This document shows, in pieces, positions 3,714 to 22,650 of a stretch of DNA of 25,398 bases. Under the pieces are notes generated by a model. It saw only the letters and a list, made by a program, of their open reading frames with translations. It had not been told where the DNA came from and did not search any database. Numbering within the stretch: position 1 is the first letter of the stretch; every line of letters starts with the position of its first letter. This stretch comes from Candidatus Bathyarchaeota archaeon (GTDB lineage Archaea; Thermoproteota; Bathyarchaeia; Bathyarchaeales; Bathycorpusculaceae), in the NCBI GenBank assembly GCA_963777155.1, contig CAVZPM010000018.1:1-25398 (forward strand). Reading direction: 5' to 3'. Position numbers and translations under genes: made by a program.

Positions 3714-4651
3714 TTAACCTTCAAGCAGTGAGCTTAGACCTTCCGATAAGGAGACTTTTGTCTTGAAGTGTAGCTTTTCTTCTGCTTTGGATGGGTCTCC
3801 ATAACTAAACTTTATTTCGCCTTGGCGAGCTGGTTCATGAGTAATGGGTAAATCTTTTTGGGTAGCAACTTGAACGGCTTTAGCAAGATCGTTAATGCTG
3901 GTCGGGATTCCTGTACAAATGTTGAAGGTTTCTCCATCGACTCCTCTGGCTTCTAATGCTAGAATTAAGGCTTCAACGATGTCTTTTACATGAATGAAGT
4001 CACGGGTTTGTTTGCCATCGCCAAAGATTTTGAGGGTTTCGCCTTTGTTAGCTTGCTGCAAGAATTTTGTGATTACCCCGCAGTAGGGGCTTTTTTCGCT
4101 TCTTGGTCCATAGACATTGAAAAAACGTAACACAACTGTACTTAGATCCGTAGCTTCCCGCGAAGGCTTTGCAGTAGGCTTCGCCTGCAAGTTTTGAGGC
4201 AGCGTAGGGTGAAATGGGATTAACATCAGAACCTTTTCATTTATTGGCAGTGTCTTTGCATCACCATAGACAGCGGTAGAGGAAGCGAAAACAAACCTCC
4301 TGACTTTGCATCTAGCCGCCTCCTGCAGTACATTCAGGGTGCCTAGTGACGTTTACGTCATTGGTTGAGGCTGGGTCGGCGACGGAAGCAGCAATATCTA
4401 TCAATGCCGCCAAATGTATAACCGCATCTACACCGTTAAAAGCAGCCTCAAGTTTGACTTTCATCCCGAATATCTCCCTCTATAAATTCAAAACCCTTCT
4501 TTCCACTTATTTCTTTTAGATTTGCGATTTTTCCCGAGCATAAATTATCGAATACAACAACTGAGTATTTTCTTTTCAGAAGCTCTGAGACCAGATGTGA
4601 CCCTATAAAACCTGCTCCACCAGTAACTAAAATTCTGTTACTTTTGTTCAT
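3714..4651 (-). CDS. NAD-dependent epimerase/dehydratase (UDP-glucose 4-epimerase-like extended SDR), about 5 frameshifts
   Basis: [20 protein letters not shown], NVx[22 protein letters not shown] (YxxxK), RFFNVYGPR and [12 protein letters not shown] are all recoverable by switching frames between about 4140 and 4460. Confidence 0.85.
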
Positions 4652-4943
4652 TTATTTCCTTCTATCATTGGGATGTTATTTCATTCAGCGTCTGATTTAT
4701 AGCTAAATTAGCTTTGATTAACTTTTCCATCTTAACTTTTTGGTTTCTATGCCCCAGTCGATAACAAAAGTGCAGAGGACGTTTTGGGAGATAGAGCAGA
4801 TATTGATTCCCTTATGAAAACAAGAATCTCTCATATTACTTTTAATATTGAAGGCGTCCAATTCCTTTTGACTTTGCGGTTGTCTAACCACAGTCACATA
4901 TACTTAAGAACGCTCGGCTGCTTTCTACTCTTAGGTGCAAACT

Positions 4944-5123
4944 ATGAGTAAAGATAAACTTCATAATCATACATTAGGGGCTCCTTCATCCCAAGAAATT
5001 CCCATAAAAGGAGCTAACCCCGATCAAGTTCCATGTCCAGTCTGCGGGAAACCTTTCAGAACTCACTCAGAAATGGAGAGACATAGAGATACAAAACACC
5101 ATGAAACAAAAGGACATGAATAA
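4944..5123 (+). CDS. C2H2 zinc-finger microprotein
   Basis: CPVCGKPFRTHSEMERHRDTKH fits C-x2-C-x3-F-x8-H-x4-H. AGGTG SD-like site at 4933-4937 precedes ATG 4944 (alternative GTG 4935). Confidence 0.8.
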   Translation: MSKDKLHNHTLGAPSSQEIPIKGANPDQVPCPVCGKPFRTHSEMERHRDTKHHETKGHE

Positions 5124-5155
5124 TAAATAATCGAAGAATTACGATGTGTTTTTTT

Positions 5156-5386
5156 ATGTCTGAACCAGACGTACCCTATAACAAACCTGCAACAGATCTA
5201 TCTCAAGAAACAACTGAAGTTACCCCGCCATCTCCAGACGTAAAAAACCCGCTGCCTGATCATGATCCTCTGGAAAAGATAGAGTTAGGCGATTTTATTT
5301 GTCCAGTTTGTGGAAAATCCTTCAATACTAAGGCTGATCTTGATTTGCATCTGGCAAGAAACCACAGACTAACAACAAAAGCATAG
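5156..5386 (+). CDS. C2H2 zinc-finger microprotein with acidic, Pro-rich N-terminus
   Basis: FICPVCGKSFNTKADLDLHLARNH is a canonical C2H2 finger. Start is ATG 5156 or 5144. Confidence 0.8.
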   Translation: MSEPDVPYNKPATDLSQETTEVTPPSPDVKNPLPDHDPLEKIELGDFICPVCGKSFNTKADLDLHLARNHRLTTKA

Positions 5387-5869: not shown

Positions 5870-6021
5870 CCTTTTTTTAAGGACTAATTGTGTATCTATA
5901 TTGGTGGATCATCTGTTTGAGGGTTGCAATGCAACTCTGCTCTTTTATTATGTATTTACCAATTAGTAAACAATTTCTGTTAAACGGATTTCCCTAAATC
6001 AAGCTAGCTCTTAGGGCTAAT

Positions 6022-6037
6022 GCAAAATCTTTTATAC
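6022..6037 (+). promoter_or_regulatory. BRE + TATA box
   Basis: GCAAAA followed by TTTTATAC, about 25 nt upstream of the structured element starting at 6061. Confidence 0.55.
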
Positions 6038-6060
6038 TAAGTCATTAGAAAGATGTGTTT

Positions 6061-6134
6061 GAGGGGTTGCCAAAAATGCTATTTTCCGCTTATTATGGCA
6101 TTTTTGTCTTTTCTCCAAAAAGAGGCACCCCCTC
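6061..6134 (+). ncRNA. candidate three-way-junction RNA (sRNA or 5' leader of the aRF1 paralog)
   Basis: P1 GAGGGG(U)UGCC 6061-6071 / GGCA(C)CCCCUC 6124-6134; P2 AAAAAUGCUAU / AUGGCAUUUUU; P3 UCUUUU/AAAAGA. Begins at the expected TSS distance from a TATA box. Confidence 0.45.
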
Positions 6135-6318
6135 GGCTTTGCTTCTAACTATCTATGTAAACCCAAAAATGTTCAAATCCCGTTCGAGAACGGTTAATGT
6201 TAACAGGAGCGTTTCACCGCAGATTACTATCTAATGCTCACTTAAAACCTGTTTGTGAAACAATTTTCAAAAATTAATAAATCAGTATTGGTTTCAACCT
6301 GATGTTGGAGTTTCAAAT

Positions 6319-7611
6319 TTGATAGCTGAAAAAAACACTCATGTTTATGGATGCCAAATGGCTACCTCAAATTCTGTAAAACAGCACAAGCTCAGGAAAT
6401 TCATTGCCTGGCTATCAAATAAAGAGGGACGGGGCTTAGAATTTATTTCGCTATACATACCCAAAGAAAAAACTGTGGATGAAGTGATAACATACCTTAA
6501 ATTTGAATTGGATTCTTCCACCCCGAAATATGAGAATAGTAAAGATGTTAGGGATCGCTTTCAAAATGCCCTCAAGAATGTAATCCAGCGACTAAAACAG
6601 CGCAATCAAATTCCCGAGAATGGGCTTGCCATATTTGCAGGTGCTTTCCCCATAGATGATTCTGAAAATGAAACCGTGAATGTTGAAGAGGTTATCCCAC
6701 CAGAGCCAATTACCACATACTTCTACACCGTTGACAACCATTTCTGGTTGGAACTGTTAAGAGATATGCTAAGAAACCAAAAAGTGGTAGGTTTAGTTAG
6801 CATGGATTCGAAGGAGGCAAGCTTTGGATTACTGAATGGTGAGCGTCTTGAAATTATCGAAAACATCACCTCGGGGATCCATGGAAAGTCTGGAAAGGGC
6901 GGGTCAAGCCAAAGAAGGTACGAGAGAGAACGAGACATGGCACTCACTAACTATTTCCACCGAGTTGCAGAACACTCTGCAAAAACCTTTCTTGATAACC
7001 ACAAAGTTATGGCTTTGATAATTGGTGGGCCAGGTCATACTAAAGAGGAGTTCTCAAGAGGTAATTACCTTCATTATGAGCTTCAAAATGCACTTCTAAA
7101 CGTTGTTGATACCCAATTCGCCAACAGAGAAGGGGTAAGAGAGGCGCTTGATAAATCATCCGAAATATTGAGGAATATGTGTGCGCCAGAGGAGAAAATG
7201 GTTGTTCAGCGACTTTTGGCATATATGGGCAAACAGGACGATCTGGCTACTTATGGTTTAGATGTAGTTTTGACCGCTCTTAGGAATGGTGAAGTGGAAG
7301 TTGCAATAGTGACGGATAGTACGGAAATGGTTGAAATTGTTTTATTATGCAAAAAATGTGGATTATCGAAGTCGAAGATAATGAACATAGAACAGAAGGT
7401 TCAAGTTGTTCAGGAAATGGTTTCGAAACCTTGTGAGAGGTGCAGTTCGGTTGATTGGGCGTTAGAAGAGAAGGACATAATAGATGTTTTGGAGGATTTG
7501 GCTTCACAGACTAACGCAAGGGTTGAAGTAATATCTACAGAGTCTACGGAAAAGGCAAGGTTGACAGCTTTGGGCGGTTTTGCCGCTATCTTAAGGTACA
7601 GACTTCGATAG
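6319..7611 (+). CDS. prf1: divergent paralog of archaeal peptide chain release factor aRF1 (eRF1 domains 1-3), with degenerate catalytic and decoding motifs
   Basis: Intact 430-aa ORF with GGAG before TTG 6319 (alternative ATG 6358). Has ISLYIP, PENGLAIFAG, PPEPI, GGPGHTKEEF, YG...V..AL..G.VE, a CxxC..CxxC minidomain and LGGFAAILRY. The GGQ position reads GGS and NIKS is absent. Confidence 0.9.
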   Translation: MIAEKNTHVYGCQMATSNSVKQHKLRKFIAWLSNKEGRGLEFISLYIPKEKTVDEVITYLKFELDSSTPKYENSKDVRDRFQNALKNVIQRLKQRNQIPENGLAIFAGAFPIDDSENETVNVEEVIPPEPITTYFYTVDNHFWLELLRDMLRNQKVVGLVSMDSKEASFGLLNGERLEIIENITSGIHGKSGKGGSSQRRYERERDMALTNYFHRVAEHSAKTFLDNHKVMALIIGGPGHTKEEFSRGNYLHYELQNALLNVVDTQFANREGVREALDKSSEILRNMCAPEEKMVVQRLLAYMGKQDDLATYGLDVVLTALRNGEVEVAIVTDSTEMVEIVLLCKKCGLSKSKIMNIEQKVQVVQEMVSKPCERCSSVDWALEEKDIIDVLEDLASQTNARVEVISTESTEKARLTALGGFAAILRYRLR

Positions 7612-7688
7612 AATAATTAAGAAAACATCTGTAATTTGTGGTATTTTCAGCGAGATCGTTAATAATCTCGTAATTTACTTCATAGGCA

Positions 7689-8180
7689 ATGCAAAAAGTC
7701 AAAAATCTAGCACCTATATTTGCAAGTCTGCTTTTGGTTGTAGCGATAACTACTCTTTCCGCCTCTGCCACCTCTATTCCAACTTTCACACTTTCCGCCC
7801 AATCATCCCAGCTCAACTATGCATTGCCAGCGGGAACTACATTTAACGGTTCAATCTCAACTACAGGTACTATCCGCTTTTGGGTAAGCGATCCCCAAGG
7901 TGTCCAAATCGTTAATTTGGGTCTAATCGATCAAGAAGCCACCTTTGGTTTCGTTGCAAAACAGGTTGGAAACTATACATTGAATTTTGAAAATGACCTT
8001 CCTACTGCCGTTCAAGTAACGTTCTCTTACGAGACAAACCCAGAGATACCAACCAACAATTCTACATTCATACCACTTGCTTACCTCTCCATACCAATAG
8101 CGATCGCGGTAATTGGGAGTGTTCTGATTTTTGTTTTAGTGAGGCGGAAAAGAAAACCTGACGGAGCTGCTTGCACCTAA
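7689..8180 (+). CDS. secreted, C-terminally anchored protein with a GOLD/emp24-p24-like beta-sandwich
   Basis: Signal peptide, then IRFWVSDPQG...FGFVAKQVGNYTLNFEN (GOLD-like pattern), a TM helix and an RRKRK tail. Confidence 0.7.
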   Translation: MQKVKNLAPIFASLLLVVAITTLSASATSIPTFTLSAQSSQLNYALPAGTTFNGSISTTGTIRFWVSDPQGVQIVNLGLIDQEATFGFVAKQVGNYTLNFENDLPTAVQVTFSYETNPEIPTNNSTFIPLAYLSIPIAIAVIGSVLIFVLVRRKRKPDGAACT

Positions 8181-8188
8181 GACGAAGT

Positions 8189-8419
8189 TTACCTAAATTC
8201 ATTCGACGCGATTCTGGTTTCTTTCATCCTTGCTTTGTTGGTTATGGTTTCTTCGTTGATGGCGTTTTCCATTAGAGTGCGTAGTGCTTGGTTTAGGTTG
8301 CCGGCGAAATAGGGTTTTGCAATTTTTCGTGCGAATTCTTTAATCATTTCTGCTGAGAAGTTGTGGAGTGTCAAGCTTATGAGAAAGTCTTTTTCTGTAG
8401 TTATCTCTGTTTGTGTCAT
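8189..8419 (-). CDS. small hypothetical protein, ribbon-helix-helix-like pattern
   Basis: ATG 8419. Strand ISLTLH followed by two amphipathic helices (EMIKEFARKI...NLNQALRTLMENAI). Confidence 0.6.
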   Translation of the reverse strand: MTQTEITTEKDFLISLTLHNFSAEMIKEFARKIAKPYFAGNLNQALRTLMENAINEETITNKARMKETRIASNEFR

Positions 8420-8497
8420 GAGGTTCACAGAACCCCGATATCATGGATAACGCTTAAAAGGCGGGTGCTAAGGCGACAATGTACAGTTGTGGAGGGG

Positions 8498-9652
8498 TCA
8501 TTGAAAGTGCTCAGTGGAAGACGCTTGTCCAGTACTGCACAACGGAGCCTTTTGTAAATCTACAGGTTTTTTCTTAATATCATTATCTAATCGAGGCGTA
8601 TGCGCAATCAAGTCTCTAGCCCCTAAAACCTGCACACCAATAAAACCCACAAACAATGGGAACCAGAAACCCACGCTCCGCAGCAACAAGGCAGTTACTG
8701 CGCTTAATCCGGGGTCTATTCCGTAGAGCAGTAGAATGCTTGCTAAAATTATGTCAAGCGACCCCACTGAGAAGCTTGCTGCAGCATCCTGCACCGCAGT
8801 TGCTATGAAGTAGATTACGACGTAAAACTCGAGGGATTGGGGAATGCCGAGAGCGTAAAAGACGGCGATGTAAACGGATAATCCAAGTAAATATGAGATT
8901 AGATGAATGAAAAGTGGTTTGATTATTAATCTTGGGTTTTCACGGAATGTTTTGAATCCGCTGTAATAGCCAGCAAGTGATTTTTCTCTTTGCGTTTCCT
9001 TCCAAACGGAATAGCGTTTCGGGGAGATCTTCTTCAGGATTTTTTGGTATATCTTGCTGATGTTCTTTGCGGATTGTTTAACGAAGGCCAAGTAAAGAAG
9101 AACAGCAAGGTACAGTGTTACTCCGATTAAGAAGAAAACAAAAATGTTTGAGATAGCAGGGGTTATTCCCGACTTGAGAAAGACCAGGATTGCTCCGCTG
9201 TATAGTCCGAAGGCAACTATGATGTAGGCAACCAATCGGTTAGTTATGGCTGAAGCCGCAAGGACACCATAGCTTTTTCCTGTTTCCTTTTGCACAAGGT
9301 ACAGTCGTGTTAGTTCCCCACAAATTGTTGCGCATGGAAGAACTAAGTCGCTAAAGTATCCTACCCAATAGTAGAGGTAAATTCTCCGCAGACGGATTTT
9401 GATGGAACATACCCTTAGTATGCTGTTCCAGGCAAGTGACCAACAAAGTACTGAGGCAAGCACTGCAACAAGTGCAAGAGTGTAGAAGAATGCATATTGG
9501 GTTGAGTTTATGCCGTTTATGACCTTCAATATTTTGGGTATGCCAATGTAGAAATACAAGTAGATGATGAAGGCTACTAAACCACCTATCATAAAAAGAA
9601 CGGAACTTCTAATCGACAAGTACTTACTTACTGAAGACAATTTTTCACGCAA
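8498..9652 (-). CDS. lysylphosphatidylglycerol synthase TM / flippase-like (UPF0104, AglD2-like) membrane protein
   Basis: 384 aa with about 8 TM segments and the motifs W..IL, VLP..TICGE..R.Y, GSLD and LLLR...FWFP..VG. Confidence 0.8.
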   Translation of the reverse strand: MREKLSSVSKYLSIRSSVLFMIGGLVAFIIYLYFYIGIPKILKVINGINSTQYAFFYTLALVAVLASVLCWSLAWNSILRVCSIKIRLRRIYLYYWVGYFSDLVLPCATICGELTRLYLVQKETGKSYGVLAASAITNRLVAYIIVAFGLYSGAILVFLKSGITPAISNIFVFFLIGVTLYLAVLLYLAFVKQSAKNISKIYQKILKKISPKRYSVWKETQREKSLAGYYSGFKTFRENPRLIIKPLFIHLISYLLGLSVYIAVFYALGIPQSLEFYVVIYFIATAVQDAAASFSVGSLDIILASILLLYGIDPGLSAVTALLLRSVGFWFPLFVGFIGVQVLGARDLIAHTPRLDNDIKKKPVDLQKAPLCSTGQASSTEHFQ

Positions 9653-9907
9653 ATTTGCTTTTGGTTATACAAGAAACCTTGCTTGTTAGAGCTAAATAGC
9701 TTTGTAGTTGCTTTTTGTAGTCACAAAACAATATTTGTTCTTCCTATTATTTTGGCAAATGACATTATGTGGGATTTGCGATAAGTAAGCTGGATAAAGA
9801 TCCAAGTGTTCGCAGGGTTTATTCAATTATGATGTTACCTTCAACGTGGAAAAAAGTTGTTTAACCTTAAGGAAGAGTTGGAATATAGTAGCGAGTAGAC
9901 CTTCTCT

Positions 9908-11332
9908 TTATTTTAACGGTTGAAATCCCATTGGCCAGTTCGGTGGTTTTTTGTTGAGTTCCTGTTTTTTCTGGTGGATAGCTGCAACAGTGGCATGAAC
10001 ATTCTTTTCCTCAACGACTAATATGATTTGTGAGGTGTGGGGTGCGAAGATGCCGCGTTTGATGTTGATTCCTGAGATTGCGCTGATGGCAAGGGAGGCT
10101 ACTCCGGGAGAATCCTTCATACGGTCGCCGATGAGCGTTACCACGCCTAAACCATAGTCGATTTTCATGTTCTCATCGAAGCCCTTGAGTTTTTCCTCGT
10201 TCTTTTTCAGGAAGTCTGAGTCTAAGAATAGGAAGTCTCGAATGCGTTCGCCTGTTTCCATGGTTTCTGCTCCGAGATCCATGAAGTCGTTTCTACGTTC
10301 CCAGATCCTAAGGGAATCTTCCAGCGAGCGACTTTTCTCGTCACTCATCGAAAGAATAGCACAGCCAGATTTGCCTGTCAAGCACTTCACGACTTCACCC
10401 CCGGTTGTTTGCGCTTCAATAATTGAGAACATTTTGGGTTCATCGATAGGCACCACCATCAGCGGCTGACCAAACCGTCTCGCCATGGCAATTGCTGGGC
10501 TCTGCACGATTTTCATGCCCATCATCGAGGCCTTGTGGGCTTCGTTGTAGGTTAAGGCGTTGACATGTTCAGTTTTCTGTCCCCTAACAACTTTAGGGTC
10601 AGCGCTTTGAACAGGTACGTCCTTGTAGAGAAGCGTTTTTGTCAAGTAAACATCCTTCAGCAGGCAGGAAACAAAAACCGCAGTTAAGTCTGATCCACCT
10701 CTGCCCAGAACGGTTTCAAGGCCGTCTGGTGTTACACCCAAGAAACCAGCTAAACATACGACTTTGTTTTCTTCTAAGGGTTCAATTAGAGAATGGAGGC
10801 TTTTTTTGCTTGATTCATAGTTGGGCAATGCGTCTTCAAAGTTGTCGTCAGTTACAACTGGCCAATCTTCCATAGTGAGGCAGTATGAGTCCAAGCCGTT
10901 GCTTTTTAGGATGTAATCCATCAAAGTGGACATGGCGAGTTCCCCTCCTAATGTGAGCACTCGGGCTTTGATGTTGCCACTGAAACGCTTGTTAACTGCG
11001 TCAAGAGTGGTTTGGGTCAGAGCTTTATAGTTGGCAAGTTCATCCTGTGCTTGCCTAAGCAGGTTACCCTTGACGTATTGTTTTGCTAAACGTTCATAGA
11101 TTTCAAAAACTGGCTCCAAAGACAACTGGCAGGCTTGTGCATAGGATTCACCTATCTTGATGAGGGCGTCAGTGCAACCCATTGGTGCAGAGAACACTAT
11201 GACTGGTCCACTGCCGTCTTTTTCCCTGATTTCTTTTATCTGCTTGACTATTTTGGGGATTCCCTTGCCTTCCGCGTCAAGGAGGCTGCCGCCGAATTTA
11301 GCTACTGAAACCGTCTTGAAAGCGCATTCCAC
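9908..11332 (-). CDS. lysC: aspartate kinase with C-terminal ACT domain
   Basis: VAKFGGS, VFSA, GE..MS, AGFLG...LGRGGSDLTA, DV...ADPK.V, Y.EA, and the ACT segment VTLIGDRMKDSPGVAS. Confidence 0.9.
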   Translation of the reverse strand: MECAFKTVSVAKFGGSLLDAEGKGIPKIVKQIKEIREKDGSGPVIVFSAPMGCTDALIKIGESYAQACQLSLEPVFEIYERLAKQYVKGNLLRQAQDELANYKALTQTTLDAVNKRFSGNIKARVLTLGGELAMSTLMDYILKSNGLDSYCLTMEDWPVVTDDNFEDALPNYESSKKSLHSLIEPLEENKVVCLAGFLGVTPDGLETVLGRGGSDLTAVFVSCLLKDVYLTKTLLYKDVPVQSADPKVVRGQKTEHVNALTYNEAHKASMMGMKIVQSPAIAMARRFGQPLMVVPIDEPKMFSIIEAQTTGGEVVKCLTGKSGCAILSMSDEKSRSLEDSLRIWERRNDFMDLGAETMETGERIRDFLFLDSDFLKKNEEKLKGFDENMKIDYGLGVVTLIGDRMKDSPGVASLAISAISGINIKRGIFAPHTSQIILVVEEKNVHATVAAIHQKKQELNKKPPNWPMGFQPLK

Positions 11333-11609
11333 CTATAGGAATTAGCAACATAAAGGTAAGGTTTAATAAAATTTTCTAGTTTTTCGGCAGCTAAATGTTA
11401 GTCGCTCTTTAACCTAGAGCTGTCGACTGTTCATCTGACTGCTGTTTCTCCTGATGATAACTGTTACACCACTATTTTCCCTTTGATTGAATAATTATGA
11501 TTGCGGATTCATGATAGAATCAACTTCTTACCTGTAATGCGTGGCTAAAAAAAGAAAAGGAAATAAACGCCGACACGCTTCAAAATAAACAAGAAGGTTT
11601 TAGTTAGTT

Positions 11610-12020
11610 ATGTATGACGGATTTGTATTTTTCTGCACGAAAACTTCCCAGCAACAATGTTTAAGCAACAAACGATATACCTGCTCTGACCAAAAAACCA
11701 AACCCAATGAAGAAGACATTAAAGCTGGTTCAATAATTTTCCTTTTTAACATTGATGATAAGAGTCTGCTTGGTCCTTTCACAGCCATGACGGAAGAAGA
11801 CGAGTTGGATGCTGGTGCATGGGCCATGGATGTTGACACTCATATCCCCTCTGAAGACATTAAAGTTGCCTGGGAAGACCTGCACATTATCCAAAATGCT
11901 CCAGAAGAACTCCCGTTCTTGAAGGATCTCAAAACCTGCAAATTGACCTCAATGCAGACCCAACGAACCTTAGACATACTAAAGAAGGGAGAACTCTACA
12001 TCTATACAAAAAACAAGTAA
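11610..12020 (+). CDS. stand-alone DCD (development and cell death; PUA/EVE-like) domain protein
   Basis: GFVFFC...QQCL.....IKAGSIIFLFN......GPF.A......D..AW follows the DCD pattern G.IF.C...ECF.....IKPG..LFLFN......GIFEA.....IDP.AW. Confidence 0.7.
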   Translation: MYDGFVFFCTKTSQQQCLSNKRYTCSDQKTKPNEEDIKAGSIIFLFNIDDKSLLGPFTAMTEEDELDAGAWAMDVDTHIPSEDIKVAWEDLHIIQNAPEELPFLKDLKTCKLTSMQTQRTLDILKKGELYIYTKNK

Positions 12021-12021
12021 A

Positions 12022-12186
12022 TTAAAATTTTTTTGCTTCTAACTCTACGATTTTATGGCAGTTAAGGCATCGAGTAAAGTTCAATTCGAAACCGTTGAGC
12101 AAGTCAAACTGTCTCTGGTTGTACACTTTCTGTTTCTCATGTACACAGTTAAGCTGCCGCTCTTCAAACAAAATATCCTTCTCCAT
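12022..12186 (-). CDS. small Cys/His metal-binding protein
   Basis: GGAG-rich SD before ATG 12186; 54 aa with CxH...CxxCH. Confidence 0.7.
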   Translation of the reverse strand: MEKDILFEERQLNCVHEKQKVYNQRQFDLLNGFELNFTRCLNCHKIVELEAKKF

Positions 12187-12270
12187 TCTCCTTCTCCTCA
12201 ATAGAATTAAGAAATGAGGTAGGCTTAAAAAAGTTTGCAATGATTCAGCTAAATAAAAAAATGGAGAAGG

Positions 12271-12696
12271 TTAAGTACCTTTTATTTGTGCTTCAACATT
12301 AACGGGCACCGCTTCTTTGTAGACAAACATCACTGGGCAATTGGCTTCTGTCCGTCTCCAAGCTGCTTCCACCAAGCCTTTTCTTGCTGGCGAGTCAATG
12401 TTTACTTTCATCGTTACTCCAGTTAGCGTCGGAGAGTTGCCTGATTTTTCTGCTTCGACAACAATCTCAATTTTCCCTGGATCAACCTTGCTGTTTTTGC
12501 AGACATCAGCGTAAATAATGACTCCGCAACCAGCCAACGCCATCAACGCAAGCTCCAATGGTGTGGGTCCGGCGTTTGTTCCTCCGGCTGCCTCAGATAA
12601 ATCACAGATAACCTTGTGTCCTCTGCTGTTGTCGGTTTCTAATCGGACATTTTCAAGAAGTTTCGCGTTTGCTTTTAGTTTTGCCATAGAAATCAC
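12271..12696 (-). CDS. OsmC/Ohr/YhfA family protein
   Basis: D.....GG.NAGPTPLEL.L.ALAGC and a second conserved Cys in NCPV. Confidence 0.9.
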   Translation of the reverse strand: MISMAKLKANAKLLENVRLETDNSRGHKVICDLSEAAGGTNAGPTPLELALMALAGCGVIIYADVCKNSKVDPGKIEIVVEAEKSGNSPTLTGVTMKVNIDSPARKGLVEAAWRRTEANCPVMFVYKEAVPVNVEAQIKGT

Positions 12697-12824
12697 TGGT
12701 AAAGAATTATGCCGCTGTCAATTTAAGAATTCTGTTTCGTTAGCGGACCCATAGAATCTGGATAAATAATGTGAAGCGTTAAATAGCAAAAAAACCGTTT
12801 CCTCATAACAAAGAGGCTCAAACC

Positions 12825-13890
12825 TTGAAAAATAAAGGTCCACTATTTATCGTACCCTGGCGATGCACGTTTGCATGCGACAGTAACTGCGTCCACTGCG
12901 CCTCAGCACAAAAATCACCCGCTCCAGACGAAATGAGCACTGAAGAAGCGAAAAAAATCGTTGACCGTATCGCCGATTTTGGGGCAACTTTTTTTGGAGT
13001 TACGGGTGGGCAGCCGTTTCTCCGCAAGGATCTCTTTGAAGTGCTTGATTATGCTACAGAAAAAGGTTTGAGCACGAGCATAATAACGGATGGGCGCCTT
13101 CTCGATGAGGAAATGTTCAAAAAAATTGTCAAGAACCAAACAAAAATTTCTGTAAGTATCGATGGTACCGAGAAAACTAATGATGCAATCCGCGGCAAAG
13201 GTGCCTACAAATCGGCAATCTCAGCCATCGAGCGTTTTTCAAAAGAAAAACTCCTAAATTGCCTAGTTTATACGTTTGCAAACATAGGCAAAAAAACCAA
13301 TGCAAACGAAGATGATATGTTGCATGTGCTGGATTTAGCTAAAAAGTACGATGCACGCTGGGTGGTCTTCCATGGCATGATTCCATACAGCAGCGATAAA
13401 GCCTGCCTCAAAGCCGACTTAACCCCTGCCCAGTACGAGTGGGTATGCAACAAACTCTACGACCTCACACCCCTAATACAACGGAAAACCCTGCATCAAC
13501 GTCTACATTCCGTTCTACGCCCGAGTAGCCAAACAACGCGGCATGCCAGACTTCGACAACTGGTACAACAACTTCTTCTTGGGTAGGTGCTTTTTTGGAA
13601 AATTCATGAGCGTGGCAGAGAACGGCGAAGTTATTCCCTGCAGCTACAACGATGCTTACCGAGTCGGAAACGTCAAAGACAAATCACTCGGAGAGATCTG
13701 GGAGGGAATGCAGAGTAGCGAATTCTTTAGCAAAGTCAAAGACAAAGCTAACATAAAGGGCAAATGCGGCGTCTGCGAATACAATGATCTCTGCGGTGGA
13801 TGTCGATCAGCAGCATTATTCTATACTGGAGACATATTAGGGTCCGACCCTAGATGCGGCTACATTCCAGCTGCTCTTAGAAAAAATTAA
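12825..13890 (+). CDS. radical SAM protein with SPASM domain (PqqE/AhbC-AhbD-like), 1-bp frameshift near 13470
   Basis: CDSNCVHC, TGGQPFLR and VSIDG...D.IRG.G. The C-terminal ORF has C...PC...GN...C..C....CGGCR...D..C. The frames join at the C-run near 13470. Confidence 0.85.
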
Positions 13891-13978
13891 GCCCCCAATA
13901 GCTCTCAGATCTCACGTTTGCTTGAGATAAATGAATCGCTATTGAGAGAATGGCGGATAGTGACTTCTCTATCCATAC

Positions 13979-14955
13979 TTAGTTTACTGGGCGATTCTGT
14001 TTAAGGATGGATGCAACGGTTGCAGCGGTTCTGCGCCTACGTCTAATAACAACCACGATAGCTACAAGAGCAATTAATACAGCTATAACAACGACAATGG
14101 CTATCCAAGGTGTCGTGGCTGGATTTAGAGTCTGCATGAAGGGTATTTGTATGGTGAAGGCATGTTGACTCTGACTGTATATGCATGAAATGACCCATAC
14201 ATCGTCTTGTGGTTCGCTGGAAAACGCAAACGCAATCGGTTTTCCATCAATGTTTACTCCCAGCGTGTGGATGTCGCTTACAAGAGTTTTCGGGATGCAA
14301 ACGTGGACATATCCTGTTGTGCTTGTGGTTCCATTCGTGTTGAAGCTGATTGTTTGGGTTGCCGCGGTATAGTTAAGGTCGGATATGGTTGAGTTTGACG
14401 CTACGGAGAAAACGTTGCCTGCTGAATCGGGCATAAGCGCTAGGTTTACAGTAGCGTTCATCCAATGTAGTGTTGAGTTTCCGTCCCATTTAGCGTTGAG
14501 CAAGTAGTTGCCAGTTGCGTTGGGGATCCAAAGTGCTCCAAAGCCCCCATCAGGCTCGGGTTTGTACCAATGAGAAGTTTTCCCACCTGTTTCCAGAGTC
14601 AGCGCTGAAGGAGAGATATATAGATGCACTGGGGATGGCGGTTTTGTTGTAAGTTAGGGTGCCCGTTACTGTAACTTTGAGATTGCTTGTGGCAGCGGTG
14701 CTTTTGCAGTCAATCTCTATAGTGGGTTTAGCTGTAGGGTTCTGGTCTGGGCGTTGGGATTGGAGTTACGGTTGGTTCAGGAGTAGGTGAGGGGGTAGGT
14801 GTTGACGTTGAAAATTGAAAAGGAGAATCGGCCAGCGGAGTATAGGCAGGGTTTCCATTATGTGTCAAAGTAATCGTTGAGGAAGCTGCAAGAGCGGTAC
14901 AGCTTGAAATTATGAGGATTATTGCGAGAAGACCTAACAGTTTAATATTTGTCAT
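13979..14955 (-). CDS. secreted surface protein (signal peptide, PT-rich linker, Ig-like domains, C-terminal TM), frameshifted
   Basis: ATG 14955 MTNIKLLGLLAIILIISS..., STPTPSPTPEPTVTPIPTP, DGGF...W.P.ATGNY...A.W.G, SNSTIS.L.Y, GY..V.IPK.L, then TM and RRRRR. Confidence 0.75.
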
Positions 14956-15221
14956 GGAAACACCCACTACCGATTGTTTTCTTCTGATATCCAAGCGCTG
15001 ATATTAGGCGGTGTGAATTTAAGGGTTTTTGAATTTATGCGAATCAAAAACACATTAGTTTGCTACCAAATCATCTTTTGAGCTTTTTAAGTCATTCAAA
15101 TTTGGCTAGAGTAAGTGGAGCTCCAGTATCAATTCCAAGAGTATTTTACGTTTGCTATAGCTAACTAGGTGAAAGAGTATAATTTGCCAAAACCTTTAAG
15201 GAAAAATAATTAGCGAGAGCA

Positions 15222-15278
15222 ACGTGCACCCAATAATGTTTGGAAGAGAGAGGGGCAAGGAATCGGTTGGATGCACGT
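15222..15278 (-). other. 12-bp stem with a large CU-rich loop in the 3' UTR of the 15286-15555 gene
   Basis: Minus strand ACGUGCAUCCAA (15278-15267) pairs with UUGGGUGCACGU (15233-15222), including one U-G pair. The loop contains CCUUGCCCCUCUCUCUUCC. Confidence 0.5.
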
Positions 15279-15285
15279 CACACAG

Positions 15286-15555
15286 TTATGGGTGTCTCAA
15301 GCTCCGTCGGAAGAGGAAACCATAGATTTGTCTGGAACGGTTGTAGTTCTGTTGAGCTTTGGCTTTTGGATAGGACAGTTTTTGTGAACCTTTGCTTGTT
15401 ATGAAGACGGAGCCGCCGTTCTTGAGGTGCTCTTTAACTTGGCAAAAATCCACTTGTTTTGCTTCTTGAACTTCAACGTCGTCGCTGGCGTCGTTGTCGA
15501 GGAGCAACACTTGAAATACCGATGGCTTTGTTCTTTTCCTTAGTTGTATAGTCAA
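15286..15555 (-). CDS. hypothetical protein
   Basis: 89-aa ORF, TTG start after GAAGGAAGGA, TATA-like sequence about 45-55 nt upstream. Confidence 0.7.
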   Translation of the reverse strand: MTIQLRKRTKPSVFQVLLLDNDASDDVEVQEAKQVDFCQVKEHLKNGGSVFITSKGSQKLSYPKAKAQQNYNRSRQIYGFLFRRSLRHP

Positions 15556-15651
15556 AAATAATCCTTCCTTCAGGTTTGAGAGTAACCTTATATTTCTTCA
15601 AAAAATGTTTAAAGCTATGTTGTTGCTAGCGCACTACCACAAGAAAAAACT

Positions 15652-16310
15652 TTACTGCAGGATAAACTTGAGGATTCTTGGGTCTTTTAGGGATCCAACA
15701 ATTAAATCAGGCTTTTCAACAGCAAGCTCTTGGCGGGAGTAAACGCCTGTTGTAACGGCAATGCATCCCATTTCTGCGGATTTGGCGGCTTTTACGCCAA
15801 AAATCGAATCTTCAAAAACCACACTTCTTTGTGGGTTAGCATTTAGGCTCTCAGCAGTTTTTAGGAAAATTTCTGGGTCAGGCTTTGAGTGAGAAACCGC
15901 TTCAACTGTTAAGATCGTATCAAAACAGTCCGCTATACCGTTAATTTGAAGCAAGTGCATGATGACGGAGCGGTTATTCATCGATGCCAAACCCACTCTT
16001 TACCTTGCCCCGCAGTTCTTCCAAAAGCTCTCTTGCGCCCTCAAACAACAGCTACCTCGTTGGCTAATTCGATTTGCACTTTACTTTTCCGCTCAACAAG
16101 CTGCTTAACAATTTTCTCGTCAACTCGTCTATTTGCTGCTTGAAGAATTTCGCGGAAGGTTTCAGATGCACCGATGCCGATTCTGCGTTCAATATATTCG
16201 GTGGGGACTTCGAGGTTAATTTCTTTAAGCGCTTTTTGGAATGAAACTACGATTGCTTTTCGTGTATCGGCGAGTGTTCCGTCCCAATCGAAGATTACTG
16301 CTTCAAACAT
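15652..16310 (-). CDS. HAD-superfamily phosphatase (subfamily IA), frameshifted near 16000-16050
   Basis: VIFDWDGTLADT (motif I), LASMN (II), KPDPEIF (III), FEDS..GV.AA..A.M (IV). Translationally adjacent to proC. Confidence 0.88.
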
Positions 16311-16319
16311 TACGTTTCG

Positions 16320-17129
16320 CTATGTGAGGTTTAGTTTTTCTCGGATGGCTTGGCTTTTTTTGGTGGCTTCTTCGATGGCGCGTATCATGGCGGGTCGAAT
16401 CTGAGATTGCTCGATTTGGTAGATGGCTTCGATGGTTGTTCCGCCTGGCGTGGTGGTCATGTCTTTGATTTTTGCTGGGTCCTCGTTTAGGTCGATGACG
16501 AGTTTGCCTGTTCCCATCACGGTTTGGGCGGCGCATTTTAAAGCGATGTTTCTTGGCAACCCAACCTTCAACCCTGCGTAGGTTAAGGCTTCGATGATGA
16601 TTGACATGTAGCCTGGTCCACTGCCGCTGACCGCTGTGATGGCATCCATGTATTTCTCGTCCACCTCATCGCAGACACCCATCATGTTCAGAAGGGTTTT
16701 GACTTTTTCTTTGTCTTCTGCTGTGACGTTTTCTCCGCAGCAATAAGCCGTATATGCAGCCTGCACCATCGCTCCAAGGTTAGGCATTATCCTCACAATT
16801 TTGCATTCTGCTGGAGCATTCTTCTTTAGAAAGCTAAGGGGCACAGTGGCAGCGACGGATATGAGGAGTTTGCCCTTGATTTCCTTGCTTATTTCCTTGA
16901 GGACTTTCTCAACGTCGCCTGGCTTAACAATTATGAAAACGATGTCGGCGTCGGCGGCGGATTTACGGTTATCTGAGGAGACTTTGACACCTAACTTTTC
17001 CAAGTCACCGAGTTTTTCTGGTGCAATGTCTACTGCTGTGATTTTGCCAGCGTATTTGCCTTTGATTAGGCTTTTGATTATGGCGCTTCCCATCATGCCT
17101 GCGCCGATTACAGTGATTTTATCGTTCAT
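16320..17129 (-). CDS. proC: pyrroline-5-carboxylate reductase
   Basis: IGAGMMG, VKP, ISVAA, RIMPN, TAVSGSGPGY, TTPGGTT. Confidence 0.96.
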   Translation of the reverse strand: MNDKITVIGAGMMGSAIIKSLIKGKYAGKITAVDIAPEKLGDLEKLGVKVSSDNRKSAADADIVFIIVKPGDVEKVLKEISKEIKGKLLISVAATVPLSFLKKNAPAECKIVRIMPNLGAMVQAAYTAYCCGENVTAEDKEKVKTLLNMMGVCDEVDEKYMDAITAVSGSGPGYMSIIIEALTYAGLKVGLPRNIALKCAAQTVMGTGKLVIDLNEDPAKIKDMTTTPGGTTIEAIYQIEQSQIRPAMIRAIEEATKKSQAIREKLNLT

Positions 17130-17198
17130 GAGTGCTCACTTTATCTTGTAGAAACACGGGTTTTGCTCTTTAAACTTTCGCAGCCAAGAAACTGGTGC

Positions 17199-18419
17199 CT
17201 ATTTGGCTGTGACTAGATCTCTGAGCACTTTATGCATTGCTAAGGCGGGCGCGTTTGTTTTTATGCTTCTGGGGTTGAAGTGGGTTTGGACTGCTTGGAA
17301 GCCGCTACGCTGAAGAGCAGCCAAGAATGCTTGGTTTGATGGGGCTGGGAGGTTGAGTTTTCCGCTTAACTTGTCAATAACGTAGTAAGTGGGAGGTTCC
17401 GTGGCTTCGGCTTTGGTTAGGGTTAGGAGTTTTGTTATTTTAGCGCTGTTTTTGAAAGCGGTATTCTGGTTTTCCTTGATCATTTGTTCAATGAAGGCTT
17501 GGTCAGAGATACTTCCTATCCATAATGGTCCTGCATGCTCCATTTTTGCGCCGCATTCAGGACATTGACTACTTTTACCGAAAATTTGACGAGTAGTTTC
17601 ACGGTGCATACAGCCAAAGCAGTGCAGAATATAGCCTGTTGACTTGAGGCTTTCGTCAGCTTTTTGGCAGCCGTACCCGATTTGGGCGTAGACTCGAATG
17701 TAGTGGTCGCTGCTGTGGCTGAACAGAATTCGAATTCCAATATCATGCTTCGCCGCCACCGATGCCATGCATCCCGCCAAGAGCCGCACCGCCAACTCAT
17801 GACAATACTCCGTGCGCAATGGTTTGCCACCGTACTTTCGCACACAAGCCTTTGCATGAACCCCGCAGAGAGGAGCCAAATCAGTTGCAGTAGCGGCAAT
17901 TAACCCATTGTTTTTTATTGCCCTGAACGCTGAATCCAAAAAGGGCACTGGAGTACCAAAGGGGTCGATGTCTATTATGTCGAAGCGTTTTTTGGGCGAG
18001 GCATTGTCACTTAAAACGGCGTTAGCGTCTTTGTGTTCGAGGGTGATTTTATTTTCCATCTTGTTTAATTCAATGTTGTATTTTGCCAAATCTACAGCTG
18101 AGGTGTTGATGTCACTCAGCATCACCCTTGTTACTCCCTCGATTTCGACTGCAAAACGGATTCCTCGAATGCCTTGGCTGGTGAACGGTTCGCAGATACT
18201 GATTTCATGGTTAACCATATGCTGGTAAGCTTTGAATGCTAAAACGGTTAAGTCACGGTTGAATTCCATGACGGGGTTGTAGAAGACTGGTGCTTTAGAG
18301 GGTGCATAATCGCTGGGAACGACGCCATAGGCTGCGAGTTTAGGCACTAAGACTTGGACTTTGCCTTCTTTGATTATTTCGCTTGGAAAATCTGCGACGT
18401 AGCCTGCTTTGTTTGCCAT
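17199..18419 (-). CDS. trm1: tRNA (guanine26-N2)-dimethyltransferase Trm1
   Basis: PVFYNPVM..NRD, GIRGIR, DIDPFGTP.PFLD, TATD.A.L.G, E.AVR.L, HY.R, zinc ribbon, GPLW.G, THF....IKTNA. Confidence 0.95.
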   Translation of the reverse strand: MANKAGYVADFPSEIIKEGKVQVLVPKLAAYGVVPSDYAPSKAPVFYNPVMEFNRDLTVLAFKAYQHMVNHEISICEPFTSQGIRGIRFAVEIEGVTRVMLSDINTSAVDLAKYNIELNKMENKITLEHKDANAVLSDNASPKKRFDIIDIDPFGTPVPFLDSAFRAIKNNGLIAATATDLAPLCGVHAKACVRKYGGKPLRTEYCHELAVRLLAGCMASVAAKHDIGIRILFSHSSDHYIRVYAQIGYGCQKADESLKSTGYILHCFGCMHRETTRQIFGKSSQCPECGAKMEHAGPLWIGSISDQAFIEQMIKENQNTAFKNSAKITKLLTLTKAEATEPPTYYVIDKLSGKLNLPAPSNQAFLAALQRSGFQAVQTHFNPRSIKTNAPALAMHKVLRDLVTAK

Positions 18420-18499
18420 TTGGTCTGCTCCAGAGATGTTGGTATGAAAAGAATTTAATCGGCATATTAGACTTATGGTTAGTTGGTGTAAAAGACTTG

Positions 18500-19036
18500 A
18501 TGACGAGGGTTTTGATTTTGACTGGTGCTCCAGGGGTTGGAAAAACCACTCTGCTCACTAAGATTGTGGATACCTTAAAAGCCAAAGGCATTAGTGTCGG
18601 AGGCATGATTAGCCGTGAAGTGCGGGAAGATAACGTGCGGGTGGGTTTTGAAATTCTGGATTTAGCCAGTGGTAGACATGGTTGGTTGGCTCAAGTAAAC
18701 GGACAAAGTGGTCCACAAGTAGGAAAGTACCGCGTCAACCTTGACGATCTCGACGACATCGGTACCTCTGCTATCACTCAAGCCCTCGAAAAATGCAGTG
18801 CCATAGCCATCGACGAGATAGGTCCCATGGAGCTTTACTCGCAGAAATTCAAACAAGCCGTAGTACAGGCATTGGGAAGTAAAAAGCTGGTGTTAGTGGT
18901 CGTGCATGGAAAAGCCAACGACCCGCTGGTAACTCAGGTTAAACGAAGAGTTGATGCCGAGATTTTTAATGTAACTTTTTCTAATAGAGAAAGCCTGCCT
19001 GAGCAACTAGTACAAAAAGCCTTAGCTGCACTTTAA
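18500..19036 (+). CDS. nucleoside-triphosphatase, THEP1 family
   Basis: LTGAPGVGKTT, GGM.S.EVR...RVGF, VGKY.V, IDEIGPMEL. The likely start is ATG 18500 (or TTG 18497); the longer 18383 start would overlap trm1. Confidence 0.92.
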   Translation: MTRVLILTGAPGVGKTTLLTKIVDTLKAKGISVGGMISREVREDNVRVGFEILDLASGRHGWLAQVNGQSGPQVGKYRVNLDDLDDIGTSAITQALEKCSAIAIDEIGPMELYSQKFKQAVVQALGSKKLVLVVVHGKANDPLVTQVKRRVDAEIFNVTFSNRESLPEQLVQKALAAL

Positions 19037-19152
19037 TTCGACTAAGTCATCTTCTAAGGTGATCCTATTTTGGATTCTAATAGCCAATCTATGCAGAAAT
19101 GATAAAGGTTAGGTCAGAATAGGTCTAAAATTGTTGATTGTGCCCAGAAATG

Positions 19153-19440
19153 TTATCTGTTGTTTCTTGCTTTATGTTTTGTTTGAGGGGTCTTTGTAGG
19201 TTCATCCCAGTATTTATCAAATTCTTCAGGCGTCATGATGTTTAGGCTTTTAAGTTGTTGGCTGAACGCATCCAGTGCACAAGGGTTGTTCAGATGCGCA
19301 CGATAAATCTCCATCAGCAAATCCACAGCCATCGAAGCAGAAATAGGCTTCTTAGCCATCAACGATAACTCCTCAGAGACTTTAACTAAATCCTCAAAAA
19401 CCCGCAAAGGCAAATCAACAGTCTTAACCATATCAATCAC
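19153..19440 (-). CDS. hypothetical protein (RHH-like N-terminus)
   Basis: 95-aa ORF 7 nt downstream of the flavodoxin gene; strand-helix-helix pattern KTVDLP..VFEDL...KPIS...AVDLLM. Confidence 0.7.
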   Translation of the reverse strand: MIDMVKTVDLPLRVFEDLVKVSEELSLMAKKPISASMAVDLLMEIYRAHLNNPCALDAFSQQLKSLNIMTPEEFDKYWDEPTKTPQTKHKARNNR

Positions 19441-19447
19441 TTAGTGT

Positions 19448-19993
19448 TTACAGACTCTTGGCTATTTGCTCTGCATCCTTTTTAATCTTCGCCAACTCAT
19501 CCACCGTCGGTTTGCCTCTAATGTCGCCGAGCCTGCCTAGCGTGCTCATGTCCAATCTGCCGTGAAACTCGCCAACAATGTACCATTCTCCAACGATGCT
19601 AAAGCCGAAATGCTCAAAATATTGCCTCATCGTTTTCCCAGCGGGCGTAGCCTCATCTATACCCGTATGTGGACCTGAATACGTGCAGAAGATAAGCGCG
19701 TTTTTTCCAGCAACCTTTGGGGCAGACGGCTTAATCTTTCCTTGGCTTCTATACAGGTTAAGTTTAGCTTTCAGTAGGTCAGCTATGGGTTTTGCTGGTT
19801 GCCACTCAATCGAGGGTGAACCCACACAAACCAAATCATACCCGAAGAAATCGGTTTCAGCGGCCTCTGCGGGCTTCTTTAAATCAACCTGCATTCCGCC
19901 AGATTCGAGACCTTCTTTAATAGCGGATGCGACTTTTTGAGTGTTTCCTGTACTTGAAAAATACACGAGTAAAGCTGACTTCAAAATCTCCAC
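19448..19993 (-). CDS. flavodoxin family protein
   Basis: VYFSSTGNTQKVA, YDLVCVGSP, FCTYSG. Confidence 0.88.
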   Translation of the reverse strand: MEILKSALLVYFSSTGNTQKVASAIKEGLESGGMQVDLKKPAEAAETDFFGYDLVCVGSPSIEWQPAKPIADLLKAKLNLYRSQGKIKPSAPKVAGKNALIFCTYSGPHTGIDEATPAGKTMRQYFEHFGFSIVGEWYIVGEFHGRLDMSTLGRLGDIRGKPTVDELAKIKKDAEQIAKSL

Positions 19994-20098
19994 CTAACCT
20001 AACATTGCAGTAATTTAAAATAAAAACATATACCTTGCCATATAAGAAAATTAAATAAACAAAGTTACAATTAGGAACATACGTGAGTACTTAGGTAA

Positions 20099-22626: not shown

Positions 22627-22650
22627 AGAAAAGTAAAAAGATAAATTGGT

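Follow-up and report, generated by a model that had tools for sequence, protein, structure and literature searches.

What remains for a class-I release factor to do once it can no longer read a stop codon? The question is raised by a gene at positions 6319..7611 (plus strand) of a 25,398-nucleotide contig from a Candidatus Bathyarchaeota archaeon (GenBank assembly GCA_963777155.1, contig CAVZPM010000018.1); the whole of this contig is the stretch of DNA analyzed here and is called the window. The gene encodes a second copy, or paralog, of aRF1, the class-I release factor of the Archaea. An earlier note, made from the letters of this DNA, had seen in it a candidate codon-blind factor for ribosome rescue or hibernation that had lost every stop-codon-reading motif together with the catalytic GGQ tripeptide. 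To our knowledge, most archaea have no known factor for releasing the nascent chain when a ribosome has stalled without a stop codon; Pelota and ABCE1 split stalled ribosomes and carry out no hydrolysis of the peptidyl-tRNA.

The comparisons presented here show that the paralog should no longer be able to read stop codons in the manner of aRF1. No part of the protein is more constrained than its catalytic loop, and a canonical aRF1 and Pelota are both found elsewhere in the same genome bin. We tentatively favor the reading that the product of the gene is a second aRF1, functional and specific to its lineage, that acts as a codon-independent A-site factor directed at the peptidyl-transferase center (PTC), probably as a peptidyl-tRNA hydrolase for stalled ribosomes. 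A literature search, which did not cover the list of two-copy genomes in Table S9 of PMC12626013, found no description of this family of aRF1 paralogs.

Architecture of the gene and its protein

The gene is an uninterrupted frame of the aRF1 fold, 430 codons long, that begins with TTG and has zero internal stops. Pfam recognizes all three eRF1 domains in its product (eRF1_1 at 28.4 bits, eRF1_2 at 112.6 and eRF1_3 at 61.9), and the protein scores 369.9 bits with the aRF1 model TIGR03676, whose cut-off for family membership is 234.7. The AlphaFold2 model has a mean pLDDT of 83.4, with residues 1-15 below 50; when it was used for a fold search, the aRF1 structure 4af1 came first (E 1.4e-37) and eRF1 next, with Balon (E 2.6e-18) and Pelota (E 8.8e-17) far below them. 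The four cysteines of the minidomain in the C domain (C344, C347, C372 and C375) show no variation, or almost none, and the C-terminal LGGFAAILRY is retained. Hence, the earlier note had been right to see an intact, full-length frame of the eRF1 fold that keeps both the zinc minidomain and this C-terminus. The features of the gene are as follows.

6319..7611, plus strand: whole open reading frame of the aRF1 paralog, 430 aa and stop (Pfam, NCBIfam, AlphaFold2, fold search)
6270..6282, plus strand: TATA-box-like, A+T-rich element aaaattaataaat, a putative promoter about 38 nt 5' of the TTG start (reading of the DNA)
6319..6357, plus strand: N-terminal extension MIAEKNTHVYGCQ, specific to the paralog family (conservation upstream of the KQHKL anchor)
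6358..6768, plus strand: N domain of the eRF1_1 type (Pfam residues 34-151), stop-codon-reading motifs gone, otherwise conserved
6427..6438, plus strand: GRGL (residues 37-40, in KEGRGLEF) at the place of the GTS/GTE loop, Thr gone (alignment)
6514..6540, plus strand: SSTPKYENS (residues 66-74), the former TASNIKS loop (alignment, dN/dS)
6724..6744, plus strand: YTVDNHF (residues 136-142), the former YxCxxxF motif, Cys gone (alignment)
6769..7188, plus strand: M domain, eRF1_2 (Pfam 112.6 bits)
6883..6927, plus strand: catalytic-loop region GKSGKGGSSQRRYER (residues 189-203), with GGSSQ at 6898-6912 (alignment, dN/dS, codons)
7189..7608, plus strand: C domain, eRF1_3 (Pfam 61.9 bits), with the minidomain at 7348-7443 and LGGFAAILRY at 7570-7599

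We conclude that the N-terminal extension is translated, because the frame remains open and conserved 5' of the codon for Met14 (..EK-x-T-H-F-H/Y-G-C-Q..), because 35/35 of the members with at least 21 residues before the KQHKL anchor carry both Phe(-12) and Cys(-9), and because the Met14 position itself is variable. Since this position can be I, M, L, V or T across the family, the ATG at 6358 is not a conserved start. The extension was not found in the canonical aRF1 of archaea that bear AmoA, nor in the aRF1 designated P0125. The TATA-like element recurs upstream at other loci of the family, and reads ..KLIN* when translated; it may well serve as a promoter. Neither a tRNA nor an Rfam family was detected in the window.

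Stop-codon reading and the catalytic loop

The motifs were counted in an alignment of 50 paralogs and 39 canonical aRF1s. The Thr of the GTS loop, found in 38/39 canonical proteins, is replaced in the paralogs by M (22 of 50), K (15), R (5) or L (3), and no Thr is listed. The NIKS motif is nearly invariant in canonical aRF1 (N, I and K each 39/39, S 37/39); in the paralogs its Asn and Ile positions are variable and subject to indels, so that Asn-Ile occurs in 0/50, while its Lys (K70 in the window) is partly retained in 32/50 and its Ser in 35/50. Similarly, the Cys of YxCxxxF is present in 39/39 canonical factors and has given way to V (40), I (4), A (4) or L (1) in the 50 paralogs, again with no Cys listed. 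Residues E63, Y136 and F142 of the window protein, which we take to be the equivalents of eRF1 E55, Y125 and F131, are largely retained (E 44/50, Y 37/50 and F 50/50, the last two being the Tyr and Phe of YxCxxxF). It is the loss of the NIKS Asn-Ile, the GTS Thr and the YxCxxxF Cys, together with the drift of the former NIKS loop described below, that argues for the disappearance of aRF1-style stop reading. The earlier note had read GRGL, SSTPKYENS, YTVDNHF and the catalytic loop exactly as we do; its statement that every stop-codon motif was lost applies to these three elements but not to the NIKS Lys, E63, Y136 or F142.

In the catalytic loop, residues K190, K193, G194, G195, S197, Q198, R199, R200, Y201 and E202 are each present in 50/50 paralogs, and R203 in 49/50; K193 and Q198 are peculiar to the paralogs, an Ala occupying each of these positions in 34/39 canonical aRF1s. 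The pattern GGxSQ that defines the loop of aVLRF-1 and acVLRF-1 is thus universal among the 50 paralogs. The only variable site is position 196, that of the classical catalytic Gln, which in the 50 paralogs is Q (26), S (18), E (4) or W (1). The window protein has no GGQ (it reads GGS-SQ), and the family as a whole is mixed in this respect. The DNA of the window loop is GGC GGG TCA AGC CAA. Since a change from Gln to Ser requires two base changes, and since the Ser196 codon varies synonymously (TCA, TCG, TCC) in the 18 Ser-bearing loci among 40 examined, the Ser of GGSSQ is no sequencing slip, as the earlier note had maintained when it excluded a single-base artifact.

The variation at position 196 is phylogenetically structured. 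Among 121 close homologues (the window's own protein being counted twice, and three being fragments that lack the loop), the loop reads GGSSQ in 61, GGQSQ in 38, GGESQ in 10, GGMSQ in five, GGWSQ in three and GGASQ in one. The 20 more divergent members from the genus (48-63% identical) read GGQSQ in 19/20 and GGSSQ in 1/20, and none has NIKS (0/20). In the tree the two basal subclades carry GGQSQ (19/20), and the varied residue-196 forms lie in the crown clade that contains the window. Because GGQSQ prevails in the divergent members and persists in 38/121 of the close ones, the loss of the first Gln is secondary, late and limited to one sublineage. The order suggested by these sequences is GGQSA in the canonical relatives, GGQSQ in the paralog stem and GGxSQ in one sublineage. 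Hence, the loss of GGQ reported in the earlier note holds for the window but not for the family.

Some observations on other aRF1s touch on this loop. Three metagenomic aRF1s (P0154, P0164 and P0194) retain NIKS and YxCxxxF and have GGWSQ or GGFSQ in place of GGQ, and many canonical aRF1s elsewhere read GGQSQ; a shift from GGQ to GGxSQ may have occurred more than once. Several other aRF1s are unusually long (P0122, P0123, P0131, P0169, P0171 and others; 680-1450 aa) and align with the query in two or three segments. A number of these break directly after GGQ, with a Cys next, a pattern suggestive of intein insertion at the catalytic motif.

Selection on the paralog

Pairwise ratios of nonsynonymous to synonymous change (dN/dS) between paralogs range from 0.12 to 0.22 (10 pairs, including three unsaturated ones with dS 0.2-0.3), far from the value near 1 that a decaying duplicate should display; for comparison, canonical aRF1 gives 0.03-0.06. 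At similar dS, the dN of the paralog is 1.6-5.2 times that of the canonical gene, with a median of 2.5 (six genomes, 15 pairs). The constraint is distributed unevenly. In the same 10 pairs, the regional dN/dS is 0.195 for the N domain (0.170 without the former NIKS loop), 0.129 for the M domain and 0.185 for the C domain, with 0.25 in the four-Cys minidomain. The lowest value in the protein is that of the catalytic loop (residues 186-206; 0.054) and the highest that of the former NIKS loop (residues 62-80; 0.34). In three close pairs the latter rises to 0.93, with 15 nonsynonymous and four synonymous changes. These ratios indicate a paralog that is conserved under purifying selection, unevenly, while its former NIKS loop drifts almost neutrally. 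The constraint on the loop fits a PTC-directed and possibly catalytic role better than a loss of function of the Balon or Pelota kind.

Canonical aRF1 and Pelota in the host

The source bin (G000; 2.29 Mb in 39 contigs, 90.6% complete with 3.8% contamination) has three aRF1-type loci and Pelota (249.8 bits), and no further gene with an eRF1_2 domain was found in it. One of the three, on contig C38, is the canonical aRF1, with TASNIKS, YRCDSRF and GGQSARRYERLR. In the assembly, two +1 shifts, each an insertion of one base (L003 ~1027-1031 and 1503-1505), divide this locus (C38:26568-27796; 884-2154 of the extracted locus L003) among three frames. Its frame was checked by aligning contigs from four public metagenome runs of peat, wetland and soil. 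In run X2 the entire contig depth is without the extra base at both sites; in run X4 this is true of 39 of a depth of 39-41.7 at the first site and of all 19.8 at the second; and in run X3 it is true of all 2.84 at the second. Because nearly all of the contig depth lacks the extra bases in those runs that reach the two sites, the canonical aRF1 is in frame in close relatives, and the shifts in the bin are assembly indels or damage private to the strain. The earlier conclusion that the paralog is not the working release factor is thus borne out by the presence of a separate canonical aRF1 and of Pelota elsewhere in the bin.

The same arrangement was found in 5/5 further genomes that bear the paralog: in each, one or two paralogs (358-386 bits) occur together with a canonical aRF1 whose frame is intact (504-516 bits), and a third, weak match (46-50 bits) resembles the one that Pelota gives in the source bin. 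In two of these five, paralog and canonical gene lie on one contig. In three genomes of family f29, genus g54 (G068, G125 and G143), and in G030, a single in-frame TAG occurs within the canonical aRF1 match; it may lie 5' of the true start or may reflect recoding.

Several explanations that invoke the host were considered and rejected. An altered genetic code was rejected because all three stops terminate long open reading frames in the bin (TAA 550, TAG 256 and TGA 231; n=1037). A link to pyrrolysine was rejected because in this 90.6%-complete genome PylS reaches 30.8 bits (cut-off 178.15) and PylD 22.6 (cut-off 150.05). A second EF1A-type GTPase was not found in the bin, which has one full aEF1A and a partial copy at a contig end; the prediction of a complex of the paralog with aEF1A and GTP (score 0.00, mark 0.32) counts as evidence in neither direction.

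A second copy of the paralog, 91% identical to that of the window, lies on contig C31 of the bin. An intragenomic duplication was rejected as its source because the window aligns over its whole length, at 90-95% identity, with parts of three contigs of the same bin, C31 (window 6186-25384), C13 (1-2932) and C4 (2939-5877). The window contig (C18) looks like that of a co-binned sister strain. The synteny between the two is broken just upstream of the paralog, at ~5877-6186.

Distribution of the family

A search of 5.8 billion proteins, from which 8000 candidates were scored, yielded at least 952 matches at E <= 1e-10; the best 120 are all 67-100% identical to the window protein and fall into one cluster at 50% identity. 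All 19 related loci from species-representative genomes belong to metagenome-assembled genomes recorded as Candidatus Bathyarchaeota or Bathyarchaeia. A class-wide sample of 151 genomes gave matches of more than 41% identity only in the source bin and in G038, both of one genus, and in 0/145 genomes outside it. Of 120 genomes of this genus, a paralog-grade match (48-100% identical, E <= 1e-130) was found in 76, a canonical-grade match alone (35-38% identical) in 40 and no match in four. A canonical copy accompanies the paralog in 71/76, so that the paralog is not the sole primary factor. The frames are intact in all 20 divergent members, and most other matches from the genus are without in-frame stops. 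Among the genomes searched, the family is thus confined to one genus of Bathyarchaeia from soil, peat and wetland.

An origin in a mobile element or a defence system was rejected, since none of 14 eRF1-like loci on viral contigs belongs to the family (all are 25-36% identical) and a PADLOC defence search gave no matches. A distant eRF1-like frame was noted in a genome of the same taxonomic family but another genus (G072:C39:7152-8237, minus strand); it is 27-29% identical and has two in-frame TGA codons.

Origin of the paralog

Phylogenies were quick LG+G4 trees with SH-aLRT supports, rooted on distant aRF1s. The paralogs form a clade (SH-aLRT 100; stem 0.58-0.68) that stands apart from the canonical aRF1 of the host genus and groups with P0125, P0137 and the canonical aRF1 of family f32 (SH-aLRT 100), a family from another class of the same phylum. 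The two share a motif of the YxCDDHF type, which reads YRCDDHF in f32 and YEVDDHF in paralogs, and archaeal AmoA is encoded in 4/4 of the f32 genomes tested. A clade that unites the paralogs with the canonical aRF1s of Bathyarchaeia is rejected by the approximately unbiased (AU) test (log-likelihood difference 62.5, p 0.0028). The window protein thus nests inside classical aRF1, near the aRF1s of ammonia oxidizers. Because its nearest canonical relatives are these and not the host's own factor, the trees suggest that the gene was most likely acquired horizontally from ammonia-oxidizing archaea.

The site of entry may also be recognizable. The paralog sits between endA and mtnA at nine loci, and in 5/5 genomes of the genus that lack it, mtnA directly neighbors endA and the interval contains nothing aRF1-like. 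The simplest reading is a transfer into the mtnA-endA spacer, followed by relocation in some lineages, that of the window included. In two of the five genomes (G185 and G199; loci L142 and L144) the spacer measures ~800-860 nt, as against 3-160 nt in the other three. The long spacer may be the scar of a lost paralog; tblastn at E 1e-5 found no remnant of one in it.

The neighborhood gives no hint of a partner. No neighbor is common to the window and the 19 related loci, and the sole recurrent neighborhood (the nine loci) consists of a class-I methyltransferase, EndA, MtnA, a glyoxalase and APRT. Its methyltransferase is trans-aconitate/BioC-like rather than Mtq2-like. An operon or a partner gene was rejected because neither a shared neighbor nor a functional link to the paralog was found.

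Comparison with known systems

The paralog resembles classical aRF1 (4af1, 3agk/3vmf) in fold, length, four-Cys minidomain and C-terminal GGFAAILRY. It differs in lacking the NIKS Asn-Ile, GTS Thr and YxCxxxF Cys, in a GG(x)SQ loop with the additional invariant residues K193, Q198 and E204, in the 13-residue N-terminal extension with its invariant Phe and Cys, and in being a second copy that evolves ~2.5 times faster than the canonical gene beside it.

The likeness to Vms1-type proteins that the earlier note had pointed out concerns the loop. A GGxSQ pattern followed by Arg residues is described for aVLRF-1 and acVLRF-1 in the part of their survey that deals with these families (Burroughs and Aravind 2019, PMC6514570). 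These are standalone genes thought to act in specialized release. By the same partial account, aVLRF-1 has an N-terminal coiled coil and no C-terminal domain and acVLRF-1 has no N domain (PMC6514570), whereas the window protein has the full three-domain architecture of aRF1. It scores 39.2 bits with the Vms1-like PF18859, as against 112.6 with eRF1_2, and 32.1 bits with the NCBIfam acVLRF1 model, whose cut-off is 125. Since the protein nests in classical aRF1 and falls short of the acVLRF1, Balon and Pelota cut-offs, the resemblance is convergent, GGxSQ having arisen in this family independently through a GGQSQ intermediate.

Pelota (Dom34) belongs, like the paralog, to the aeRF1 superfamily; the M and C domains are homologous, and Pelota also acts in the A site independently of the codon. 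The sections of the survey that treat it give Pelota an Sm-like N domain and no GGQ loop, a loop that most baeRF-1 families have lost as well (PMC6514570). The window protein, unlike Pelota, has an N domain of the eRF1_1 type and a GG loop, and the Pelota model TIGR00111 matches it over residues 142-429 (M and C domains) only, at 67.5 bits with a cut-off of 177.65. Balon, of the Balon/Rv2629 group, shares the aeRF1 fold and the absence of NIKS, and binds the A site independently of mRNA according to the passages that describe it (PMC10901736). These passages portray a bacterial protein ~10% identical to aeRF1, without a GG loop and with an HP motif, a lasso loop and a beta-hairpin insertion (PMC10901736). 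In the window family the GG loop is invariant, and the Rv2629/Balon model NF052289 gives 33.6 bits (cut-off 320).

Second copies of aRF1 have been recorded elsewhere. The relevant part of one survey, which treats them as a matter of copy number, puts two aRF1 copies in 4.3% of the archaeal genomes sampled (PMC12626013). The aRF1-2 of Methanosarcina mentioned there is likewise a second gene of the family beside a canonical one, the likeness drawn here being one of description (PMC12626013). As set out above, the window bin differs from such cases in that no pyrrolysine link is seen, PylS and PylD being below cut-off.

A possible role in the release of stalled ribosomes

The reading that we tentatively favor can be set out as a series of steps. 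The paralog would work beside canonical aRF1 and Pelota, enter the A site without reading a codon and place its GG(Q/x)SQRRYERER loop in the PTC. The peptidyl-tRNA would then be hydrolyzed on those ribosomes that the canonical factor cannot serve, be they non-stop, no-go or otherwise stalled. In the sublineage of the window, where the classical Gln is replaced (here by Ser), the invariant Q198 two residues downstream would be the candidate functional Gln. Such a protein would be the aRF1-scaffold counterpart of bacterial ArfB/ICT1. The latter are bacterial and mitochondrial codon-independent release factors that carry out GGQ-type hydrolysis on stalled ribosomes and have a fold of the bacterial RF type; the analogy is one of function only, the folds being unrelated and no homology being claimed. 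Catalysis is favored because the Gly-Gly-Gln loop that Pelota, Balon and most baeRF-1 families lose is retained here, because the basal members keep GGQ, and because the derived loop matches the GGxSQ of aVLRF-1 and acVLRF-1. The earlier description of a neofunctionalized A-site binder with a GGxSQxR loop is thus sustained as to a selected paralog and its loop pattern, but not as to a family-wide loss of GGQ.

Several points weigh against this proposal. In working release factors the classical catalytic Gln does not vary, and mutations in GGQ are said, in the title of a 1999 paper by Frolova, to abolish the activity of eRF1; position 196 nevertheless drifts freely (S, E, M, W, A) in the sublineage of the window, and the substitution of Q198 for the classical Gln is suggested by analogy. 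There is no conserved partner gene or operon. Many relatives can dispense with the paralog: the canonical factor is the only one in 40/120 genomes of the genus and in all 145 other genomes of the class that were searched, and the paralog is broken in G226 (10 in-frame stops) and, also by stops, in G233 and G183. Finally, the xenolog origin is drawn from quick LG+G4 trees with a long stem, and the group submitted to the AU test was named after inspection of the tree.

The rival explanations must be judged against the same evidence. The paralog could be a noncatalytic occupant of the A site, which aids the splitting of stalled ribosomes by ABCE1 as Pelota does or parks idle ribosomes as Balon does in hibernation, and whose loop merely binds or shields the PTC; this we consider rather unlikely. 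It would account for the loss of the decoding motifs and for a classical Gln that is free to vary in the window's sublineage, the fold search did retrieve the Balon and Pelota structures, if far behind aRF1, and the partial account of Balon referred to above shows aeRF1-fold proteins taking such roles (PMC10901736). However, Balon and Pelota are without a GG(Q) loop, while here GG, Ser, Q198 and RRYER are present in 50/50; this loop is the most constrained region of the protein, 19/20 of the basal members retain GGQ, Pelota is already present in the bin, and the protein falls short of both the Pelota and the Rv2629/Balon cut-offs. A modulator of termination that competes with canonical aRF1, or a release factor of altered specificity for some non-standard signal, is an improbable alternative. 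Conservation of the C domain, through which aRF1 binds aEF1A, and retention of E (44), Y (37), F (50) and the NIKS Lys (32) in the 50 paralogs would suit it. But the former NIKS loop differs in sequence and length even among close relatives and evolves almost neutrally, so that no fixed codon should be readable, and in the bin PylS and PylD are below cut-off and stop-codon usage is standard.

We attach very little credence to the idea that some hosts, at least, rely on the paralog as their working release factor and that it would still terminate at stop codons there. TIGR03676 does find it alone (338-345 bits) in 5/76 genomes (94, 96, 91, 75 and 56% complete); yet the other 71 have both genes, five misses are about what would be expected at 56-96% completeness, 4/120 genomes of the genus show no aRF1 whatever, and NIKS, the GTS Thr and the YxCxxxF Cys are missing in all 50 paralogs. 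Hardly any weight at all can be given to a functionless, decaying duplicate: the raised nonsynonymous rate and the few broken copies are what it would predict, but dN/dS is 0.12-0.22 in every pair, the unsaturated ones included, the frames are intact in 20/20 divergent members and most others, and many positions are invariant.

If the most far-reaching version of this proposal, given below, is correct, the paralog would supply the missing peptide-release step in archaeal ribosome rescue, and its family would show how a Vms1-type GGxSQ evolves from GGQ, with all of the stages extant. The graded series from GGQSQ (basal) to GG(S/E/M/W/A)SQ (crown) bears on the role of the GGQ glutamine, and on whether a neighboring Gln can take over from it, as is assumed for Vms1-like factors. 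The locus would also exemplify a core translation factor that moved between archaeal classes and gained a new role. In its most far-reaching form, one genus would have captured the aRF1 of an ammonia oxidizer and made of it a class-I release factor independent of stop codons, the first such in the Archaea, with a catalytic Gln that has migrated by two residues (GGQSA to GGQSQ to GGxSQ); we regard this fuller scenario as possible but doubtful. A natural, selected aRF1 that has dropped codon reading and has retained and further fixed its PTC loop is a concrete candidate for expression and assay.

Other features of the window

Some of the remaining genes of the window are broken. An NAD-epimerase gene (3714-4651, minus strand) is in two pieces, one N-terminal and one C-terminal. 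In a radical-SAM/SPASM gene (12825-13890, plus strand) a 1-base indel near 13469, apparent on comparison with the sister contig, separates the radical-SAM and SPASM parts, and the N-terminus is missing from a HAD hydrolase gene (15652-15996, minus strand). These are assembly indels or pseudogenes. Two adjacent small open reading frames lie 5' of the paralog (4935-5123 and 5144-5386, both plus strand; 62 and 80 aa) and encode one C2H2 zinc finger each; they are followed by ~930 nt without any open reading frame of at least 60 aa. The Development-and-Cell-Death (DCD) domain is mostly a plant domain; a 136-aa open reading frame at 11610-12020 (plus strand) matches it (PF10539, E 3.4e-08). Toward the end of the window there is a 51-nt direct repeat (23836-23886 and 24560-24610; 98% identical, ~720 nt apart), one copy of which is also present on contig C31.

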